Positions 6,680-63,350 of a DNA stretch of 63,498 nucleotides are shown here, piece by piece. The DNA is from Cirrosporium novae-zelandiae (Eukaryota), in assembly GCA_026023565.1 (NCBI GenBank), contig JAPETS010000073.1:1-63498 (forward strand). Direction: 5' to 3'. The notes beneath the pieces are model-generated. The model did no database searches, was not told the DNA's origin, and worked only from the letters and a program-made list of their open reading frames with translations. Both the position numbers and the translations under genes were made by a program. The stretch's first letter is position 1. Every line of letters begins with the position of its first letter.

Positions 6680-8877
6680 ATGTTATATTTATTACTAATT
6701 ATCCCTGTTATAGCTCTATTGTTACTTGTTTCAGATGTATCCTTATTTACTAAAGGTCTAAAACTATTAAAAATAAAAAAGACTGTATTATCTTTTTTAA
6801 TTGCAGTTCTATTTTTTTCTTTTTTTTTTTTTTATTATGTATGATTCTAGTTTTGAGCAGTTTCAATTTGTTACAGATTGTTTAAATTTAAGCTTTTTAG
6901 GTTTTTTTTTAGGATTTGACGGTTTGTCTCTATATTTTTTTTTATTAACAGCTACAATAATGCCTATCGCTCTTATCTCTAATTGAATCTCTATAAGTGC
7001 AAAAGTAAAAATATTTCTTCTATTAATTTTATTACTTGAAATGTTATTATTGGCAGATTTTTTAGTTTTAGATATTTTATTGTTTTATATCTTCTTTGAA
7101 AGTATATTACCGCCTTTATTTTTACTAATTGGATTCTGAGGGTCTAAAAAGAGAGTAAGAGCTAGCTATTATCTGTTTTTATTTACATTATTCGGATCGT
7201 TATTTTTATTACTTTCTATTCTTACAATGTATTCTATCATGGGAACAACAGATTTCGAGGCACTATCTAAAATAAATTATGATGATGATACCCAAAATTG
7301 ATTATTTTGGGGTATTTTTATAGCTTTTGCTGTTAAAACACCGCTATACTTCTTAAATACTTGATTGTTAAAAGCGCACGTGGAATCACCTTTGATCGGA
7401 AGTGTGATATTAGCTGCTATCGTCTTAAAACTAAGTCTATATGGAATATATCGATTAATGTTGCCTTTATTATCTAGAGCTTCCTTAATTTTTTCATCTA
7501 TGGTATATGCTGTAAGTGTTGTTACTGTTTTCTTTGCTTCTTTTAGTACTTTAAGAACTATAGATGTAAAAGAGTTGATTGCTTATTCTTCTGTATGCCA
7601 TGCTGCTGTTTATTTAATGGGTAGTTTTAGTAACACAATTCAAGGAATAGAGGGTGCTATATCTTTAGGATTAGGTCATGGTTTTGTTTCATCTGGTCTT
7701 TTTATATCTGTAGGAGGTATTTTATATGATAGATCTCATACAAGATTGATAACTTATTATAGAGGTGTGGGGCAAATGATGCCTATATTTTCTATATTAT
7801 TCTTTATTCTTTGTTTAGCTAATTGTGGTACACCTTTAACATTTAACTTCCTAGGTGAATTTATGAGTCTTTATGGTTCTTTTGAAAGATTGCCTATTAT
7901 GGGTGCTTTAGCCTGTTCTTCTATTGTATTATCTGCAGCATACACTATGTATATGTTTAATAGAATTGTATTTGGTGGTGCTTTCTCTAAATACTTTAAT
8001 TTTAATATTCCTGACATTAATAAAAGAGAATTCTTTATAATATTACCTTTGGTTTTAGTAACTATATTATTTGGTATATATCCTGACCCTATTTTAAGTG
8101 GTTTACATTTCACTGTATCTCATCTAATTTATTCTTGCAGTTATCCTGGTGATGTTTCTCTCGCATTTCTACCCTTTATAATAAAATCTGCTTCTTGTAT
8201 GCGGAGCACAAAAAAAAAATTCAGATCACAAGCAGCAAAAGTCATAGATTACGTTAAAGGTTTTTTTTTTATTCATTTATCAACTATTATATATATTAGT
8301 TTCTTTATATATAGTTTTATAGAACTAACACAGACTATACTATTTTATTGTGATATTGCGACAGGTTTAATTACAATACCTCTTCTTACATATATGTATT
8401 TTTATAATAAAATAAAACAGTATTTCATTTCTTATTTTTTTTCTTTAGATATTGTTAAAATCTCTTTTATTATCTTTAAAGAAAATGGATTTGTTAAAGC
8501 ATTGCCAACTGTTTGTAGATATTTATATTATAGTATTTTAGATTTTATATATATTCATAGATATATTATAGTATTCTTATTTCTTGTTACTATTTATCGA
8601 ATTGTTTATTTTCCTGCGCAAGCGACTGATTTTTTTGTTTGGTTATTATTACTTTTAATTTGTATTTTATCTCTTTTTTCTGGGTTAATTTTATTAATTT
8701 ATGTTCTTTTTATTAACAAAAATTTAAAGAATAATCATCCTTTATTATATTTTGTTTGTATTATTACCTCTATATTTTTCTTAATTCTATCTGTTTTATT
8801 ATGATTCATATGTTTATCTTTACTAAAAAGAAAATTGAAATATCTTCTAAATGTAACCGGAGGAAATGCTCCAAATG

Positions 8878-8932
<55 letters not shown>

Positions 8933-9440
8933 TAATAATTTTGATTATTACCACAATGATCTTAATGGTCAAAATAATAATAATTCTAATTATAATCCCA
9001 ACAATAATAATAATAACAATAATAATAACCAGAATAATTTTACCGTGTCTTCAGAAACAACAGATAATCAAAGAAAATATAAATCGAGTGATGCTGACAG
9101 GCTTAGCGCCAAAAGATCTAAAGAAAGAGAACAAGCGAGTGATATGAACTGGTTAGAGGTGGCAACTTCTGGACTAAAGAGGGAGATTTTGGATGATGTA
9201 GTCGCAAGGATGGAAATCACCAGAAAGATGAAAAAAGAAATGGCGACGAGCGAAAGGTACCCTATTCCCAAGTGTAGTGATGATTTATTAAATCTTAAGC
9301 CAAGGGAGAAATTGGTTATCTTAGAGCATTTACAGACATTTCATCGGAATTCTGTGTATTTACGGCATGTAGCGGATCAAAGAAACTTCTGACGTGGTTT
9401 AAAGCTAACGGATGAATTTATAGATGTATTAAAAAAATAA
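6680..9440 (+). CDS. nad4: NADH dehydrogenase subunit 4 with an apparent frameshift in a T14 run (6820-6833) and a ~430-aa in-frame C-terminal extension
   Basis: LGFDGLSLYF, WLLKAHVESP, KELIAYSSVCH, NFLGEF; core ends near 8135 but the frame stays open (TGA=Trp) to TAA at 9438-9440. Confidence 0.93.
8878..9032 (+). repeat. (AAT)n microsatellites encoding poly-Asn in the nad4 extension
   Basis: About 20 consecutive AAT/AAC codons plus shorter runs. Confidence 0.95.
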
Positions 9441-11394: not shown

Positions 11395-12618
11395 ATGAGA
11401 ATATTTAAAAGTCATCCTTTATTAAAAATGGTTAATTCATACTTAATAGATTCGTCACAACCTTCCAACATTAGTTATGCTTGAAATTTCGGTTCTCTAT
11501 TAGCATTTTGTTTGGGAATTCAGATAGTGACTGGAGTCACTTTAGCTATGCATTACAACCCTAGTGTATTAGAAGCGTTTAATTCAGTTGAGCATATTAT
11601 GCGAGATGTAAACTATGGGTGATTAATCCGTTATTTACACTCAAACACAGCCTCAGCTTTCTTTTTCTTAGTATATCTACACATCGGTAGAGGATTATAC
11701 TATGGATCATATAAAGCACCCAGAACTTTAGTTTGAACAATTGGAACTGTAATATTTATTTTAATGATAGGTACAGCTTTCCTGGGTTACGTTTTACCTT
11801 ATGGTCAAATGAGTTTATGAGGTGCTACTGTTATTACTAACCTTATGAGTGCGATACCTTGAGTTGGACAAGATATAGTTGAGTTTATCTGAGGTGGCTT
11901 TTCAGTTAATAACGCTACTTTAAATAGATTCTTTGCTTTACATTACCTATTACCTTTTATCTTGGCTGCTCTAGCTTTAATGCATTTAATAGCACTACAT
12001 GACAGTGCTGGGTCAGGGAATCCTTTAGGTGTTTCAGGTAATTACGATAGATTACCTTTTGCTCCTTATTTTCTTTTCAAAGATTTAATTACTATCTTTA
12101 TATTTATCTTAGCTTTATCTGGCTATGTTTTCTTTATGCCTAACGTTTTAGGTGATAGCGAAAATTACGTTATGGCTAACCCTATGCAAACTCCCGCAGC
12201 GATAGTTCCGGAGTGATATCTTTTACCTTTCTATGCCATATTACGTTCTATACCTAATAAATTATTAGGTGTTATTGCAATGTTTGCAGCAATCTTAATG
12301 TTATTAGTTATACCTTTTAGTGATTTATCTAGATCAAGAGGTATACAATTTAGACCATTAAGTAAAATAGCTTTTTGAATATTTGTTGCTAATTTCTTAG
12401 TTTTAATGATATTAGGGGCTAAACACGTAGAAACTCCATTTATAGAATTAGGACAAATATCTACTACTTATTATTTTGCACATTTTTTTATCATAATGCC
12501 CCTTATTAGTCTACTTGAAAATAGTTTAATGGAATTAGGGAGTTACCGTTTGATACGTTTAAATTTAAGTCAGAAAAAAAAACCAGATGCAAGACAAAAT
12601 CTAACACGGTGAACTTAG
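11395..12618 (+). CDS. cob: Apocytochrome b (no introns)
   Basis: [11 protein letters not shown] start; [27 protein letters not shown]; stop TAG at 12616-12618. Confidence 0.98.
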
Positions 12619-14252
12619 GCGAAGCCCTCAGTTTTAAGGATAAGGCAATAGATATTGGTTTTTATGTGCTATTGTTTTTAATATTAGGGGCTGCAATGAT
12701 TTTTCATATAGATGAGGTCCTCTTGCATATGATGCCGACAGGTAGCCAGAATGCTAAGAATCCAGGGGGTTCTACTACTCCATGGTATGATCCTAATTCA
12801 GAGACTAATTTTTCATGGTGTTATTCAAGGGAGTTTTATATAGGGGATTCTTTTTTTAATGATGGTTCTTCTACACCTGGGAATTTACCTGCTTCAGAAA
12901 ATTCTCTAGGGGATTCTACTAATCTAAGGAATTCTACTAATCCAAGGAATTTTGCTGTTCCGGGTAATTCTACTGCTCCAAGGAATTTTCTTACTTCAGG
13001 GTATTTTCCTACTTCAGGAAATTCACCTGTTCTAGGGAATTCTCCTATTTTAAGGTATTATCCTAATCCAATGAGTCCTACTACTCCAGGTAATTCTACT
13101 GTTCCAGGGAATTATATTCCTCAAAGGAATTCTCCTATTCTAAGAAATTTACCTAATTCAGGAAATTCTCCTACTCTAGAAAATTCTACTTTTTCAGGGT
13201 ATTATCCTAATCCTATGAATTCTACTGTTCCAGGTAATTCTACTGTTCCTGGGAATTATATTCCTCAAAGAAATTCTCCTATTCTAAGAAATTTACCTAA
13301 TTCAGGGTATTCTCCTACTCTAGGAAATTCTACTTTTTCAGGGTATAATACTAATCCTGGGAATTATATTCCTCAAAGAAATTCTCCTATTCTAAGAAAT
13401 TTACCTAATTCAGGGAATTCTCCTACTCTAGGAAATTCTACTTTTTCAGGGTATAATACTAATCCAGGTAATTATAATACTCAAAGGAATTCTCCTACTT
13501 TAGGGAATTCTACTATTCCAAGGTATAATAATAATCCAGGGTATTATCCTACTCAAATCAATTCTCCTACTCTAGGGAATTCTAGTCTTCCAAGGTATAA
13601 TACTAATCCTGGTAATTATAATATTCAAAGGAATTCTCCTACACTAGGGAATTCTGTTGTTCCAGGTAATTATACTAACCCTGGTAATTATACTACTCAA
13701 AGGAATTCTCCTACTCTAGGGAATTATGATGTTCCAAGATATAACACTAATCCAATGAATCCTACTATTCCTGGTAATTCTCCTACTCAAGGGAATTACA
13801 TTGCTCCTGGAAATTACCCTACACCAATGAATCCTAATATTCCAGGTAATTCTACTTCTCAAAGGAATTACACTTCACCAGAGTATATTTCTGCTCCATG
13901 GGATAATACTTTCCCAAGGACTTATATTACACCAGAGGAGTATAATCGAAGGTTAGTAGTGTCAGAATGAAAGCGTTCTATGCTTTATAATATTGGAGAG
14001 CGCTTAAGTATTATAAACGCAGAGGACGAAAAGAAGCCTTCATTCCCTGTTAGTACTTTAGGTGACACTCGTTTAGCCTTAAGTGACCAAGAAAAGGTAC
14101 TTGTAAAAGAACTTATGCTAAGAGAAAAAAAATATTTTGGCGGTGCAATTCGTCAATTAAATTCCGGACAAGGCGACAACTGACGTGTGGTTGTTAACAC
14201 TAAAAGATTACGGCAATTTTTAACAGAGCCTGCGCAAAATGTAGATAAGTAG
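12609..14252 (+). CDS. Orphan ORF (~547 aa): TM segment, N/S/P/T/G-rich repeats, C-terminal domain; overlaps the cob end in the -1 frame
   Basis: Track ORFs 12609..13970 and 13980..14183 join through TGA=Trp to TAG at 14250-14252; frame open from 12525; start uncertain. Confidence 0.75.
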
Positions 14253-14801
14253 TTTTTTCCAGGATTAGTTGCTTTACCTAGCTCCTTTTTCATTTCTTCT
14301 GCCTTATTTCCTCAACCCCCTTGTCTGATCTTCAGCCGCGACCCCTAAGATCTATATTATCTTTATTTCCCATAGATTTGTTATAACCTCCCCCCCGGGG
14401 CCATGGTCCTCTGCAGTATTGCAGAGGCCCATGGGCCTTTATCCCCCCCTTGCAGTACAAGTAGTAAAAAGACACTGCGGTATTTCGTTGTAGTTTGACG
14501 AAGAACTCTATAGATTTTTAAGTTTGTAACTAATATATGTACTTTTTAGATATATGAATGTGTATCACTTGTATTCCTTCTTTCCCCCCCCCAGCTTGCG
14601 CCTGCTTTCGCCTGCTCTTTTTTTTGCTTGCTTTCGCCTGCTCTTTTTTTTTGCTTGCTTGCGCCTGCAAAAAAAAAACAGTCTGTACCCCCCCCCAAAG
14701 CCCCCACTCTACGAGTGGGGGCTTGGACTGTTTTCTCTGTGGAGCGGTTTTTTATAAACACTAGGTAGGGGGCTTATTGAACTAAATCTTTTTTTTCAAG
14801 A

Positions 14802-15328: not shown

Positions 15329-15464
15329 CCCTAGCCCCCAAAGCCCCCACTCTACGAGTGGGGGCTTGGACTGTTTTCTCCTTGCCCCTTAAAATAAAAA
15401 AAGGGGCTGGAGAAAACAAGGGGGCTTATAAAAGCCCCCAACCAAAGGTTGGGGGCTAGGGGGA
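15329..15464. mobile_element. Composite palindromic element; inverted copy near 32900-33036, partial copies near 40546 and 42720
   Basis: Modules agcccccactc...gagtgggggct, ttttctccttgcccc...ggggctggagaaaac and agcccccaaccaaaggttgggggct in the same order. Confidence 0.85.
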
Positions 15465-15575
15465 TATGGTAAATCCAAAGCTTGTGATAAAAAATATAAG
15501 TACGAATATTATCTTGGGCATGTACTAAACAGTAAGGCTATACGTTGTCCTTATTTTTCTTTTTATAATAAAATA

Positions 15576-16217
15576 ATGCTAATAATGAATATATTTAATG
15601 TTAGAACTCCCTTAGGTTTATCTTTTACATATTGTGGTAGAAAATTTTCAACATCATCTTCTTTACTTGGAAAAGGTAAGGAGCGCGCCATAGACAATCT
15701 TCCTTTAGAGGAATCGGAGTCTATTAAAAAAACTCCTGAACAATTAGCTCAGGAAGAACATGATGCTCTTTTAGCTAGATTGTTACAAGAGGAGGAGGAA
15801 GAGGCCTTTATGACACGAGACTATAACCCTGATTTAACACCCAAACCATTAAAATCTAACGAGTTAGAAGGTTTTTATGACGAACATAAAGACAACTCTG
15901 ATCTTTATAATATAGATGACAAGGGTAGATTAATTAATTTTCCTTCCAGGAATACTTTTAAAGATTCTTCTCCTACAGAAGAAGGATCTTCTTCTGCTGA
16001 AGGATCTTCTTCTGCAGCTAAAGGTTCTTCTAGCGAGGGATCTTCTTCTGCAGCTAAAGGTTCTTCTAGCGAGGGATCTTCTTCTGCTGAAGGATCTTCT
16101 TCTGCAGCTAAAGGTTCTTCTAGCGAGGGTTCTTCCCTTTCAAAAGAAAGATCGTTAATAGACGATTATGCTGATGTTTCGACAGAATTTCCCGATTATA
16201 CAGCAGGAGACGATTAG
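15576..16217 (+). CDS. Orphan ORF213: basic/hydroxylated N-terminus, SSSAAKGSSSEG repeats, acidic C-terminal motif
   Basis: Intact ATG..TAG; ends SLIDDYADVSTEFPDYTAGDD. Confidence 0.75.
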   Translation: MLIMNIFNVRTPLGLSFTYCGRKFSTSSSLLGKGKERAIDNLPLEESESIKKTPEQLAQEEHDALLARLLQEEEEEAFMTRDYNPDLTPKPLKSNELEGFYDEHKDNSDLYNIDDKGRLINFPSRNTFKDSSPTEEGSSSAEGSSSAAKGSSSEGSSSAAKGSSSEGSSSAEGSSSAAKGSSSEGSSLSKERSLIDDYADVSTEFPDYTAGDD

Positions 16218-20334: not shown

Positions 20335-20732
20335 TGCATTTATTAAAAAAAAAAGGTTTAACGCACTTGGTCCCGCTTATAATAATCCAAGGTTTTTATT
20401 AGGGTCCCTACTTGCTGGCAGAAACTACTCTAATGTAGTCGAAATCCCTGAAAGATTAGCTTTAAACCACATGAATAAAAAGTAGTAGTATGTTTCTATC
20501 GTGCTGTACCAGAGTTTGAACTTTCTCCCGAAAAGGCCTTTAAAGCAGTAGCTCCGCTACTAAAAGCAAAAAGCTTGTTTTTCAGTCTCTGATCCGTATA
20601 TATTTGCGAACGTGGGAGAGGAATATTTGTTTATTAAAGCCCATGTACTACTTTTTATTAGTGTCTAAACTATCTAAGGTTGCATTCCTGAACTTCGTAG
20701 TACTCCGTAGAGAATTATTAGTTTGTTCGGTT

Positions 20733-20834
20733 TGTTCTGAAACCTGTGGAATCTTACATAGTTCTATGCCTATCGTTGTTGAGTCTGTTTCAATCGAGAA
20801 GTTTTTATCTTTATTAGCGGATCAAGAGGTATAA
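20733..20834 (+). pseudogene. Displaced cox2 3' end
   Basis: [33 protein letters not shown], synonymously diverged from cox2. Confidence 0.92.
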
Positions 20835-21229: not shown

Positions 21230-21376
21230 ATGCCACAATTAGTACCCTATTACTTTATAAACCAAGTTACATGTATTTATATCTTTCTAGCTTTTACAAT
21301 ATATATATTATCTAAATATTCCCTACCCCGATTTTTTCGATTGTTCTCTTTTCGGTTTCTTATGGGGCGAATTTAA
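21230..21376 (+). CDS. atp8: ATP synthase subunit 8
   Basis: 48 aa, MPQLVPYYFINQ...LSKYSLPRF. Confidence 0.95.
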   Translation: MPQLVPYYFINQVTCIYIFLAFTIYILSKYSLPRFFRLFSFRFLMGRI

Positions 21377-21664
21377 ACAAAAACTGAAAAACTTCTACAA
21401 GTTTCTATCTAATAGGATAGTAGTTTTTAAACAAAAGCTGAAAAACTTCTACAAGTTTCTATCTAATAGGATAGGAGTATTTAAACAAAAGCTGAAAAAC
21501 TTCTACAAGTTTCTATCTAATAGGATAGGAGTATTTAAACAAAAGCTGAAAAACTTCTACAAGTTTCTATCTAATAGGATAGGAGTATTTAAACAAAAAC
21601 TGAAAAACTTCTACAAGTTTCTATCTAATAGGATAGGAGTATTTAAACAAAAACTGAAAAACTT
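21372..21664 (+). repeat. 54-bp tandem repeat, about 5.4 copies (FKQKLKNFYKFLSNRIGV)
   Basis: tttaaacaaaagctgaaaaacttctacaagtttctatctaataggataggagta. Confidence 0.95.
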
Positions 21665-23546
21665 AGACAAATATCTAACTAATAAGCTAAAACATTGTAT
21701 ATGTCTTATTTGGGATTGTATACCTTCTTTTTTTATTCCTCGTTTACTTCCTTTTTTTTCTTGTCTACTGCGTAATATAAATACTGTAAAAGTTATATTA
21801 TTTATAGTGTTCTCTTTATATATGTGATATTGCTTTTTATATATAAAACCCACTCTATTTTTTTTCGTTGCTAAATCTTGAGTTAAGCTTTCAGAATATG
21901 TTGTTAATGCGGGTTGACAAGATTTTTTTGACTTTGACCATCCGGATTGGACAACAGGGAGTACACCAGGGAGTCCTAATAGTCCTACTCCTCCTAATAA
22001 TCCTACTCCTCCTAATAACAATTATCCTGTATTTGATCAAAACAATGATCAAAATGATCAATCTCAATTATACGGTGGTCAAAACAATCAGTTAAATAAT
22101 CAACACAATCCGTTAAATAATCCAAACAATAATCTGATTAATAATACGGACAATGCTCAAGACAATCAATCTCAATTAGATGGTGGTCAAAACTATCAGT
22201 TAAGTCAATCCCAACCGTTTAATTCAAACAATAATCAGTTTAATAATCAAAACAATGCTCAATACTATCCTTCTCAAATAAACGGTAGTCCAAACAATCG
22301 ATTAAGTCAAAACCAGCCGTTTATTTCAAACAATAATCAGTTTAATAATCAAAACAATGCTCAATATTATCCTCCTCAAAGAAACGGTAGTCCAAACAAT
22401 CGATTAAGTCAATTCCAACCGTTTATTTTTTCAGACAATAATCCGTTTTATCATCAAAATAATGCTCAATACTATCCGTCTCAAATAAACGGTAGTCCAA
22501 ACAATCAATTAAGTCAATCCCAACCGTTTATTTCAAACAATAATCCGTTTAATAATCAAAGCAATGCTCAATACTATCCTTCTCAAATAAACGGTAGTCC
22601 AAACAATCAATTAAGTCAAACCCAACCGTTTATTTCAAACAATAATCCGTTTAATAATCAAAACAATGCTCAATACTATCCTTCTCAAATAAACGGTAGT
22701 CCAAACAATCAATTAAGTCAATCCCAACCGTTTATTTCAAACAATAATCCGTTTAATAATCAAAACAATGCTCAATACTATCCGTCTCAAATAAACGGTA
22801 GTCCAAACAATCAATTAAGTCAATCCCAACCGTTTGATTCAAACAATAATCCGTTTAATAATCAAAACAATAATCCGTTAAACAACTCAAACAATTATCA
22901 AGCCAATAATCAAACCCAAATATACGATGGTCAAAATAATCAGTTAAATAATCAAGACAATCTATTTAATAATCAAAACAATAATCCGTTTAATAATCCA
23001 AACAATTATCAAGCTAATGATCAACCCCAATTAAACGATGGTCAAAATAATCAAAACAATAATCCGTTTAATAATCCAAACAATTATCAAGCTAATGATC
23101 AACCCCAATTAAACGAGGGTCAAAATAATCAGTTAAATGACCCTGTATCTCCGGTCCCTCAATATATACCGGAGGAAACTTTGCGAGCTATTAGTGGTGA
23201 AAGGACTCCTATAGAAAACTGAATATTCGAAAAAAGAGTTGGTAAAAAAAAAGTACCTTATTGTACTAATACTTTTCACGATGAACCCGTAAAAATATAC
23301 GTCAAAGAAGGGTGATGAGATACCTATCATCACACGGAACCAGCTCATCCGCTGCCACCTTGCAATGAAGTTATATATAAAGAAAGAGGGAATGGTTATG
23401 TTGTTTATGATCCACATACTCTTAATAAGAAAGAAGTCCCATTGTTTGTAAAACGAAACAACGGGGGGGAATATATACCTCTAAATGCTACAGTAAAACA
23501 ATCATCTTTACCAATTGTATTAAGACCAGGTAAAAGTAGTAAATAA
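21372..23546 (+). CDS. Orphan ORF (~725 codons, not in the ORF track): 18-aa repeats, hydrophobic segment, Q/N/Y/P-rich 34-aa repeats, C-terminal domain
   Basis: No TAA/TAG seen in this frame from 21291 to TAA at 23544-23546; first in-frame ATG at 21822; overlaps the atp8 stop in the +1 frame. Confidence 0.72.
22200..22872 (+). repeat. ~102-bp tandem repeat, about 6.5 copies (LSQSQPFISNNNPFNNQNNAQYYPSQINGSPNNQ)
   Basis: Recurrent caatactatccttctcaaataaacggtagtccaaacaat. Confidence 0.93.
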
Positions 23547-23797
23547 CTAATTTATTTCTTCTATATTAAGCCCCTTTAAAAAAAAAAGGGGCTTTATAAA
23601 TTTTGCTTTTCTTAGCAGAAAAAGAGTGCCCCCCCCCACCTTAAATTCGGTTCCTGAACTTCGTAGGCTGCTTTGCTCCCCCCCTTGCAGCAAGGGGGGG
23701 GGGGGGCGAAGCAGAATGCATGCTGATCCTCTACTACGGAGTCGAATGGGCACAACCAAAATAAAAGACACTCTTAAATAAAAAAAAAACAAAAAAA

Positions 23798-33197: not shown

Positions 33198-33299
33198 ATA
33201 GCATTCTCTGGTTTGGAAATTGGAATTGCTTTTATACAGGCACAGGTGTATGTAATTTTATCTTGCAGCTATATAAAAGATGGTTTGGATTTATATTAA
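33198..33299 (+). pseudogene. Displaced atp6 3' end
   Basis: IAFSGLEIGIAFIQAQVYVILSCSYIKDGLDLY*. Confidence 0.92.
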
Positions 33300-33443: not shown

Positions 33444-33685
33444 TCCCCCCCGCTCCTCAGCTTTATTGCTGAGGAGCGGGGGGGGGGGCCCAAAAAAAAC
33501 ACAAAAAAACAACACACTACTCCGTAGTGAGGGGGATATCCAATATTTTTTATCAGAAGCCCTTTTTTTTATCCCCCTGCTCTGCGTTGCTGAAGGGGCA
33601 AGCCCCCAAAAGAAAATTTTGGGGGCTAGGGGCTTATACCACCTTAGTCTCTTTAATATTTTTATTGATTTCAATTATTTAAGTA
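33444..33685 (+). repeat. Duplicate of the atp6 upstream region (31602-31825)
   Basis: Shared cactactccgtagtgagggggatatccaatatttt... and accttagtc..tttaatatttttattgatttcaattatttaagta. Confidence 0.9.
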
Positions 33686-33697
33686 AAACTTTGGATT

Positions 33698-34378
33698 ATG
33701 TTTAAATTTAATAACATATTGGACAAAACAAAGGTATTTCACCAAAATAAGGCAAAATGTGTATATAATCATTCGTTTAGATCTTTTTCTATGTCGTTTT
33801 CTTTAAAAGTAGATGGTGGCCTTTTGGATAGGATAGATAAACTTTTAAAGGAAAATAAGAATTTCGTTAAAAATTCTAGGTCTGACTTTCTTTTTAAAGA
33901 ACGTGAAATAATGGATCAAAAAGTTGATGATGCTAATCAAACTATGAAGGATTGAGTTAGTAAATGCTCAGAACATGCTGATAACAACAAGATGGAGCAA
34001 ATTAGGGAGACGAATGAGAAACTTATCTCTTCTATCTTTGAGAAAATAGGTAGTTTAGATAAAAACGATCCCTCTTTTGCTGAGAAAAGTTATAAATTAT
34101 ATATTCTAGCTAAAAACGCTAGAAACAAACACTTAGATCAATTAGAAGCTCTAACTTCTGAGGCTGTTAAAGATAACAGCAAACCTTGAGAACTTGATGT
34201 ATTTTTTAAATTAAGGTTAGAAATCCTTAATAAAAGGAAAGAAATTCTTGATAAAGATAAAGAATTATATTCCAAGGAAGTTGATTTTATTAAACAAAAT
34301 CCACAACCTTCATCTTTAGTTGAAGACTTTGCAGATCCTAATTTGGAGATGCCTGGATATATTGATCCAGAGGATTAA
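33698..34378 (+). CDS. Orphan ORF226, helical and charged, with acidic C-terminal motif
   Basis: Track fragments join via TGA=Trp; ends SLVEDFADPNLEMPGYIDPED*. Confidence 0.78.
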
Positions 34379-43221: not shown

Positions 43222-43293
43222 AGTGTGTTAGTTTAATGGTAAAACGTTGTGACACGGACACAACGAATACAGGTTCAAGTCTTGTACACATTT
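43222..43293 (+). tRNA. trnR: tRNA-Arg(ACG), with atypical A32/C33
   Basis: ttgtg-acacgga-cacaa; complete cloverleaf. Confidence 0.82.
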
Positions 43294-63224: not shown

Positions 63225-63270
63225 GCTCGAGAAACTTAATTGGTAGAGCGGAACTCTGAAGATCCTACTA
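63225..63270 (+). pseudogene. Truncated tRNA-Phe(GAA) remnant
   Basis: gctcgag..aattggtagagcggaac.ctgaag 5' half at the position expected after trnA; no T arm. Confidence 0.6.
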
Positions 63271-63297
63271 CTTTGTTTCATAATATAATTTAAACAA

Positions 63298-63350
63298 TAT
63301 TGTTTAGTGTAACGGTAACACATCAGGCTTATGGTTTGATATAGTGGTTC
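63298..63350 (+). pseudogene. Degenerate tRNA remnant (possibly Gln-derived)
   Basis: D arm gtgt-aacggta-acac, anticodon arm tcagg/tttga, ggttc, then broken. Confidence 0.5.

Follow-up and report, generated by a model that had tools for sequence, protein, structure and literature searches.

An overlapping reading frame at the 3′ end of mitochondrial atp8 in Cirrosporium novae-zelandiae and its possible expression by +1 frameshifting

The mitochondrial atp8 gene of the fungus Cirrosporium novae-zelandiae ends inside a second, far longer open reading frame (ORF), which lies in the +1 frame of atp8 and stays open through 176 codons before its first ATG. The locus raises the question of whether such a frame is a gene and, if so, how ribosomes could reach it. 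The window, i.e., the whole stretch of DNA analyzed here (63,498 nucleotides; contig JAPETS010000073.1 of assembly GCA_026023565.1, forward strand), is contig C100 of the 31.4-Mb, 128-contig genome and holds most of the fungal mitogenome. The ORF is a gene that is translated now or was translated recently; it is a gene-end passenger, overlapping the 3′ end of its host gene and consisting of a hydrophobic part, a linker and a tail; and, as judged by sequence comparison, it is an orphan, with no relative in the collections searched. The tentatively preferred explanation of its translation, which is possible rather than probable, is that ribosomes on atp8 may slip by +1 into the passenger frame and make an Atp8 fusion.

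The passenger ORF as a gene

The frame was analyzed under NCBI table 4 (TGA = Trp), in which its six TGA codons decode as tryptophan; it closes with a TAA stop at 23544–23546 and overlaps the last 28 codons of atp8 (Table 1). A preliminary description of this DNA had proposed a hidden ORF of ~725 codons at the atp8 end, and such an ORF is present with 750 residues, the smaller figure fitting a count from the first repeat. That it is, or recently was, a translated gene follows from its open frame, codon-position bias, frame-keeping repeats and depletion of homopolymers. None of 3000 dinucleotide shuffles kept the 408-bp tail open in frame, and 0.23% did so for the 297 bp of the hydrophobic part outside the repeats. 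GC content is higher at first than at third codon positions: of 136 tail codons, 68 have G or C in the first position and 28 in the third (p = 6e-7), and for the 99 codons of the hydrophobic part the counts are 36 and 17 (p = 0.004). Homopolymer runs are scarce (G/C, 1 vs. 5.9 expected; A/T, 3 vs. 9.1; p = 0.02 each), and all 10 tandem-repeat rows inside the ORF have a period divisible by 3, as the preliminary description had held for the 54- and 102-bp units and the single 3-bp insertion. The 176 codons ahead of the first ATG comprise 52 non-repeat codons, open in 6% of shuffles, and repeats of which one 54-bp unit is open in 12%, so that chance is an unlikely cause of the open stretch; the ATG itself (codon 177, 21822) falls midway through the membrane segment. 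For neither the passenger ORF nor atp8 was a second or nuclear copy found in the genome.

The architecture of the product agrees largely with what had been described, with one qualification. The five 18-residue repeats are present, each carrying 5 Lys/Arg and no acidic residue, along with a diverged sixth; their amphipathic character, however, follows from composition, because 21–35% of 18-mer shuffles reach the same helical moment. The basic repeats are modeled as a single helix of ~115 residues with a predicted local distance difference test (pLDDT) score mostly >90 (single-sequence model, predicted template modeling score 0.31), and the same model places two helices over the hydrophobic part that follows. 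The hydrophobic segment, likewise part of the earlier account, was recovered as one stretch of transmembrane strength at about residues 164–186, as were the ~6.5 copies of the 102-bp unit with one 3-bp insertion (six full units and about half of another at 22200–22871, one of them 105 bp long with an extra codon) and the non-repetitive tail of ~130 residues, which measures 133. The low-complexity region that contains the 102-bp array is 32% N, 17% Q, 11% P, 9% S, 5% Y and 5% F.

Searches for relatives gave nothing that could be retained. Tail homologs were found neither among longer proteins (111 candidates) nor in metagenome contigs (58 pattern matches) or viral contigs (2), the best match of the tail to PDB sequences had E = 0.99, and neither the tail nor the hydrophobic part had a tblastn match elsewhere in the window. 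One tail match in 1.84 billion representatives (E = 2.7e-5) fell on an acidic repeat in a BAH protein from a leafhopper and was dismissed as a chance match. Residues 1–260 had no homolog among 8000 scored candidates; for these residues as for the tail, the searches were word-based and have little power when an ORF evolves fast. Viral contigs contained nothing that matched the pattern of the 54-bp unit, and a weak search for longer Atp8 fusions found none (2 candidates). Pfam, NCBIfam and PHROGs yielded nothing above noise for the passenger ORF or its tail; a free-standing homing endonuclease (LAGLIDADG, GIY-YIG, HNH) was considered and rejected, no nuclease match appearing in these three collections. 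The structure search that had been proposed for the tail gave no Foldseek match at E ≤ 0.001 and a best VIA-align Z of 3.4, from an AlphaFold tail model with a pLDDT of 37.5, so that a known fold is neither shown nor ruled out.

Table 1. Features of the atp8 locus and of the tRNA that reads CGN codons (positions in the window).
Feature	Position	Strand	Description
atp8	21230..21376	+	48 codons, intact, canonical length and stop; sole copy found
Passenger ORF	21294..23546	+	Stop-to-stop length 750 codons (code 4); ATG first appears in frame at 21822 (codon 177)
Recoded atp8 end	21320..21373	+	Last 18 codons; Arg encoded four times, each time by CGA or CGG
Candidate +1 shift site 1	21332..21340	+	UUU_UUU_CGA, atp8 codons 35–37, via Val36Phe; putative function
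Candidate +1 shift site 2	21347..21355	+	UCU_UUU_CGG, atp8 codons 40–42, via Ser/Thr41Phe; putative function
54-bp array	21372..21695	+	5 near-identical 18-residue basic units and a diverged sixth; modeled as a long helix
Hydrophobic non-repetitive part	21666..21962	+	One transmembrane-strength segment, about residues 164–186
Low-complexity region	21960..23144	+	Pro/Ser/Asn linker, 102-bp array, 111-, 78-, 24- and 21-bp repeats
Tail	23145..23543	+	133 residues, non-repetitive, coding-type codon bias
Hairpin	23568..23594	+	22 bases past the ORF stop; possible 3′ processing or end signal, by consensus match alone
tRNA-Arg(ACG)	43222..43293	+	Sole CGN reader found; anticodon loop A32-C33

The recoded atp8 end and routes into the passenger frame

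Gene ends were surveyed in the best 80 of 434 nad4L-bearing metagenome loci, 13 more loci and six whole contigs (1.24 Mb together with this genome), which gave 443 distinct core-gene ends followed by 600 or more bases of sequence; an end was scored as fused if it ran on in frame for at least 100 codons and as overlapped if a non-core ORF continued for at least 120 codons. Non-core ORFs occupy 34/443 ends, 21 of them fused to the host and 13 out of frame (7 in the −1 and 6 in the +1 frame), and in many of them a hydrophobic part is likewise combined with a low-complexity linker and a private tail. The C. novae-zelandiae genome itself carries fused passengers on nad4, nad5 and cox1 and a −1 passenger on cob, none with sequence shared with the atp8 ORF; the likeness to the nad4 and cob passengers that had been pointed out earlier thus holds for the layout but not for the sequence (blastp against the cob passenger, E = 0.29). 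Among 21 atp8 loci, this one alone bears a coding-like passenger, the frame at locus L100 looking non-coding.

Three other passengers were seen in passing. At 8100–9440 of the window, nad4 continues in frame for ~433 codons, which add several membrane spans, a stretch of poly-Asn and a tail of helical character. At 12525–14252, a passenger of 575 codons with Asn/Pro/Ser repeats lies over the cob end in the −1 frame, its first Met at codon 58, and the overlap holds an in-frame A_AAA_AAA, a possible −1 shift site. The cob end of locus L081 (stop at 9204) is overlapped by a start-less −1 ORF and has an in-frame A_AAA_AAG two codons ahead of its stop.

The host gene is intact and colinear, codon for codon, with 20 other atp8 genes up to the stop. 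Its product is 46–58% identical to eight metagenomic Atp8 proteins that are 67–85% identical among themselves; Atp8 and Atp6 are both unusually divergent in this genome, and atp8 sits between cox2 and nad4L, its usual place being before atp6. The anomaly of the gene lies in its last 18 codons. Their codon-adaptation value (0.174) is the lowest among the 443 ends (median 0.709); their nucleotide identity to the atp8 consensus is 54%, compared with 67–98% for 17 other atp8 genes; and CGR codons (CGA or CGG) make up 4/4 of the arginine codons, compared with 3/60 in the sampled core exons of the genome, a sample that includes two short duplicated gene ends. The new, recoded host 3′ end expected of an end-replacing mobile insertion is therefore present at atp8.

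Two UUU_CGR dicodons stand in the zero frame within this recoded overlap, and the +1 frame is open from both. In each, a phenylalanine replaces a residue that is conserved elsewhere (Val in 16/17 other atp8 genes and Ser/Thr in 17/17), and UUU_CGN (N, any base) is found in 0/20 other atp8 genes. The UUU_CGN motif is a documented +1 shift site in influenza A PA-X and plant amalgaviruses, with an efficiency of 1–2% in reticulocyte lysate for PA-X, and a preceding UCC contributes to the shift (PMC5052127, PMC5009743); site 2 (UCU_UUU_CGG) resembles the UCC_UUU_CGU cassette. Within the last 30 codons of the 443 ends, UUU_CGN occurs in only two, this atp8 and the cob gene of locus L091, each of which lies under a +1 ORF whose first Met comes late (about codon 177 and codon 98, respectively). 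The L091 cob gene (13813–14410) ends in UCU_UUU_CGU_AAA_AGA_UAA under a +1 ORF of 199 codons and thus carries the UCU prefix as well, UCN preceding 3.5% of UUU codons. With the present atp8 set aside, UUU_CGN is found in 1/5 ends with a +1 ORF vs. 0/437 others (Fisher p = 0.011). The CGN codon at the shift site is rare, as the CGR share given above indicates, and is probably decoded slowly by tRNA-Arg(ACG): Y32-U33 is found in 20/21 window tRNAs and in 13/13 other CGN-reading tRNAs, and tRNA-Arg(ACG) is the exception, the only one of the 21 window tRNAs without U33. A tRNA-Phe was called on neither mitochondrial contig; two eroded tRNA-like stretches at ~63225–63350, Phe-like and Gln-like by position and eye, were left uncalled by ARAGORN.

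Because the passenger ORF has no start codon of its own, the route considered is by way of ribosomes that start on atp8. The passenger would probably be co-transcribed with atp8; a ribosome translating atp8 would stall at CGA or CGG, poorly read by tRNA-Arg(ACG), and tRNA-Phe could then re-pair from UUU to UUC, moving the frame by +1. A slip at either candidate site would enter the passenger frame and give 771 residues (~90 kDa). Most ribosomes would still make normal Atp8 and a few per cent would make the fusion, in which the membrane helix of Atp8 would lead into a long basic helix facing the matrix; a second span would then cross the membrane, and a disordered Q/N spacer would connect it to the tail. 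This topology is drawn from the known orientation of Atp8. By analogy with plant atp8 chimeras, the likeliest role of such a protein would be that of selfish or near-neutral cargo that touches ATP-synthase assembly at low dose.

A wider form of this explanation, which is more doubtful, is that start-less passengers of filamentous-fungal mitochondria are expressed through programmed frameshifting in general: by +1 shifts at UCU_UUU_CGN (this atp8 and the L091 cob gene) and perhaps by −1 shifts at A_AAA_AAN (two cob genes), with a crippled tRNA-Arg(ACG) setting the rate and, at atp8, a product made of Atp8 and a membrane-anchored, prion-like extension of 735 residues that could alter or cluster ATP synthase. 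In-frame A_AAA_AAN is found in 2/3 start-less −1 passengers, compared with 26/409 ordinary ends.

A number of observations weigh against frameshift access. Shuffling the last 18 atp8 codons, which include four UUU and four CGR, over the non-Arg positions gives one motif in 79% of cases, two in 31% (p = 0.31) and UCN_UUU_CGN in 17%, so that the anomaly of the atp8 end lies in its codon make-up and not in codon order; moreover, most relatives have CGN at atp8 codons 37 and 42 as the ancestral state. The rare codons need no frameshift to account for them, since ends under passengers with an early Met of their own are also recoded: −1 overlapped ends have a median value of 0.46, and 3/7 contain CGR. 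Outside support for the motif comes from a single locus, related genomes contribute many of the 443 ends, and nad4L accounts for 76 of the first 409 ends surveyed. At L053, cox1 has both a fusion and a motif-free +1 ORF with an early Met (entered as fused); at L124, cox1 carries a start-less −1 ORF (246 codons, first Met at 239) with no slippery heptamer, and slippery heptamers are present in 85/409 ordinary ends. The junction shows no stimulatory RNA structure (z = −0.52), and tRNA-Arg(ACG) must work to some degree because CGU is used 11 times in the sampled exons. Neither the window nor the second mitochondrial contig (C116) yielded a displaced original atp8 end in an nhmmer search with an atp8 3′ profile, for which the 54-bp target is easily lost, and atp6 and nad4 of the genome are divergent as well.

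Two further points of this kind bear directly on the alternative that the passenger is translated from a start of its own, coupled to termination of atp8: recoding begins at atp8 codon 31, just past an in-frame ATT at 21318 and five codons ahead of site 1, and the duplicated recoded ends of cox2, atp6 and nad3 show that end-replacing insertions have occurred in this genome. In that event, initiation would take place at a non-AUG codon (ATT 21318, TTA 21360 or CTG 21384) or at ATG 21822 (574 residues, 66 kDa), and the odd atp8 codons would reflect either dual coding or a recoded end that arrived with the element. Such a start is favored by the 7/13 out-of-frame ORFs whose frame has a Met no more than 28 codons from its beginning and by the recoding of overlapped ends as a class (p = 0.03). 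Initiation at ATG 21822, however, would halve the membrane segment and leave 176 open codons unexplained, the motif at L091 would have no explanation either, and non-AUG starts are uncommon in these mitogenomes; an own start is judged unlikely. Slightly less likely still is a relic, translated earlier, when its repeats expanded under selection for the frame, and now silent or dispensable, that has not yet decayed. The want of a start codon, here and in several start-less passengers elsewhere, would be natural in a relic, as would the neutral variation of the repeat copies (4 synonymous to 13 non-synonymous differences in the 102-bp array and 3 to 7 in the 54-bp array), and hypothetical mitochondrial ORFs of Neurospora crassa strains carry frameshifting indels, a weak point because the same table also lists indels in core genes (PMC3399107). 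Against a relic stand 2.25 kb free of stops and frame breaks and depleted of homopolymer runs, in a genome where the ORF that follows the cox2 duplicate did decay; the colinearity of atp8 with its relatives up to the stop also gives no hint that an indel disrupted an earlier fusion. That the two frames are joined before translation, or that the break is unreal, through polymerase slippage at T6, RNA editing, splicing or a one-base assembly error, is improbable. A T6 run does lie at 21332–21337, and a single DNA run (X1) is probably the source sample and hence no independent check, but atp8 aligns codon for codon to a canonical stop, the X1 contigs show neither an indel nor a differing letter at this place, and no intron match was found in the region.

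The remaining alternative concerns function: that the Q/N/Y repeats form a selected, membrane-anchored prion-like or condensate domain, through which mitochondria could adopt a heritable or stress-induced state, is the least probable of the explanations considered. Prion domains have at least 30 Q+N per 80 residues, a threshold exceeded by the passenger with a peak of 51 per 80. The Q+N content of its low-complexity region is 49%, vs. 14% expected from base composition, charge is almost absent there, and Tyr/Phe are spaced through the 34-residue repeats; in the PLAAC-type prediction that had been proposed as a check, run here with approximate parameters, the passenger ranks second among 651 ORFs in 1.24 Mb. 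What outranks it, however, is a simple poly-Asn run in this genome's nad4 fusion, and other passengers fill the linker slot with Gly/Ser/Asn/Pro/acidic filler. The PAPA-type score is a borderline 0.051 (approximate values, with no correction for proline clusters or disorder); proline recurs four times per 34-residue unit, the longest proline-free run being at most 36 residues; and the variation among the 102-bp copies is as expected without selection (p = 0.37). Of the suggestion that this is a mitochondrially encoded protein of yeast-prion-like composition, possibly aggregating or phase-separating, the composition is therefore upheld; aggregation or phase separation as a function is not, given the neutral repeat variation, the proline content, the borderline PAPA-type score and the different filler elsewhere. 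Selection seems to keep the frame of the repeats and not their sequence, and the Q/N region is read as a tolerated spacer expanded by in-frame tandem duplication, not as a selected prion domain.

Mitogenome setting

The mitogenome is of the Pezizomycotina type, judged from gene content and order. The window contains nad1, atp9, nad4, cob, cox2, atp8, nad4L, nad5, atp6, rns, nad6, cox3 and rnl with rps3, together with 21 tRNAs and many intron endonucleases; cox1, nad2 and nad3 are on contig C116. Duplicated, recoded 3′ ends, which are marks of end-replacing insertions, were observed for cox2 and atp6 (window 20703–20831 and 33198–33299) and for nad3 (G000:C116; L011 517–846), the ORF behind the cox2 duplicate being the decayed one mentioned above. 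Two free ORFs (15432–16217 and 33683–34378) end in an acidic motif that looks shared; the motif is also on ORF ends in L013, L015, L034 and L047 and is matched in L124. In the material surveyed, fungal mitochondrial contigs were encountered inside prokaryote assemblies and in a viral-contig record (L102–L111, G001–G006), apparently through contamination or misclassification.

Comparison with known systems and meaning

The nearest counterpart in layout is reportedly URFN of Neurospora crassa mitochondrial DNA, which Burger and Werner are said to have described in 1986 as a long ORF over the 3′ end of cox1 in another frame, with a hydrophobic first third, a hydrophilic and repetitive remainder, atypical codon use and co-transcription with its host gene. 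Compared with that description, the atp8 passenger is alike in layout and differs in its host gene, its Q/N/Y-rich composition and the lack of a Met for 176 codons. It also shares position and layout with the unnamed 3′-end ORFs of the surveyed Pezizomycotina mitogenomes, although it has no similarity to them in sequence and its host end is the most strongly recoded of all. Chimeric ORFs of plant cytoplasmic male sterility are another point of reference: sunflower orfH522 and Ogura orf138 are linked to atp8, have an AUG of their own and have a known phenotype. The passenger resembles them as a membrane-anchored orphan tied to atp8 with a possible effect on ATP synthase, and differs in being known from its sequence alone. 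With the yeast Q/N prion domains of Sup35, Ure2, Rnq1 and New1 it shares a high Q/N content, low charge and imperfect repeats bearing Tyr/Phe; unlike them, it is mitochondrially encoded and membrane-anchored, has a proline every 5–11 residues and varies neutrally from copy to copy.

With respect to the proposed shift, the atp8 sites resemble the UUU_CGN sites of influenza A PA-X, plant amalgaviruses and Zygosaccharomyces bailii virus Z in combining a P-site UUU with a rare A-site CGN, in leading into a long +1 ORF and in having no stimulatory structure (PMC5052127, PMC5009743). Those viral systems use cytosolic ribosomes and conserved sites, and shifting has been measured for PA-X, whereas the present candidates lie in a mitochondrial core gene and come from sequence data. 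Mitochondrial +1 shifts have been described in birds, turtles, oysters, ants and glass sponges, and bypassing in Magnusiomyces capitatus; in these cases the ribosomes depart from the frame where the A-site codon is rare or unused, as is proposed here, but recoding repairs inserts inside core genes, whereas at atp8 the zero frame gives the normal protein and a shift would add a foreign domain (PMC5009743). A literature search mostly outside subscription papers found nothing on gene-end passengers or on mitochondrial frameshifting in filamentous fungi.

Gene-end passengers are widespread in fungal mitogenomes and mostly unexplained. If frameshift access fails, the atp8 passenger is simply a further orphan ORF whose linker is unusually rich in Q/N. 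The frameshift explanation predicts exact junction peptides and a 90-kDa Atp8 band, and is thus directly testable; if true, it would represent a novel use of recoding, not found in the literature searched, in which a domain is added to a core subunit and not a gene repaired.

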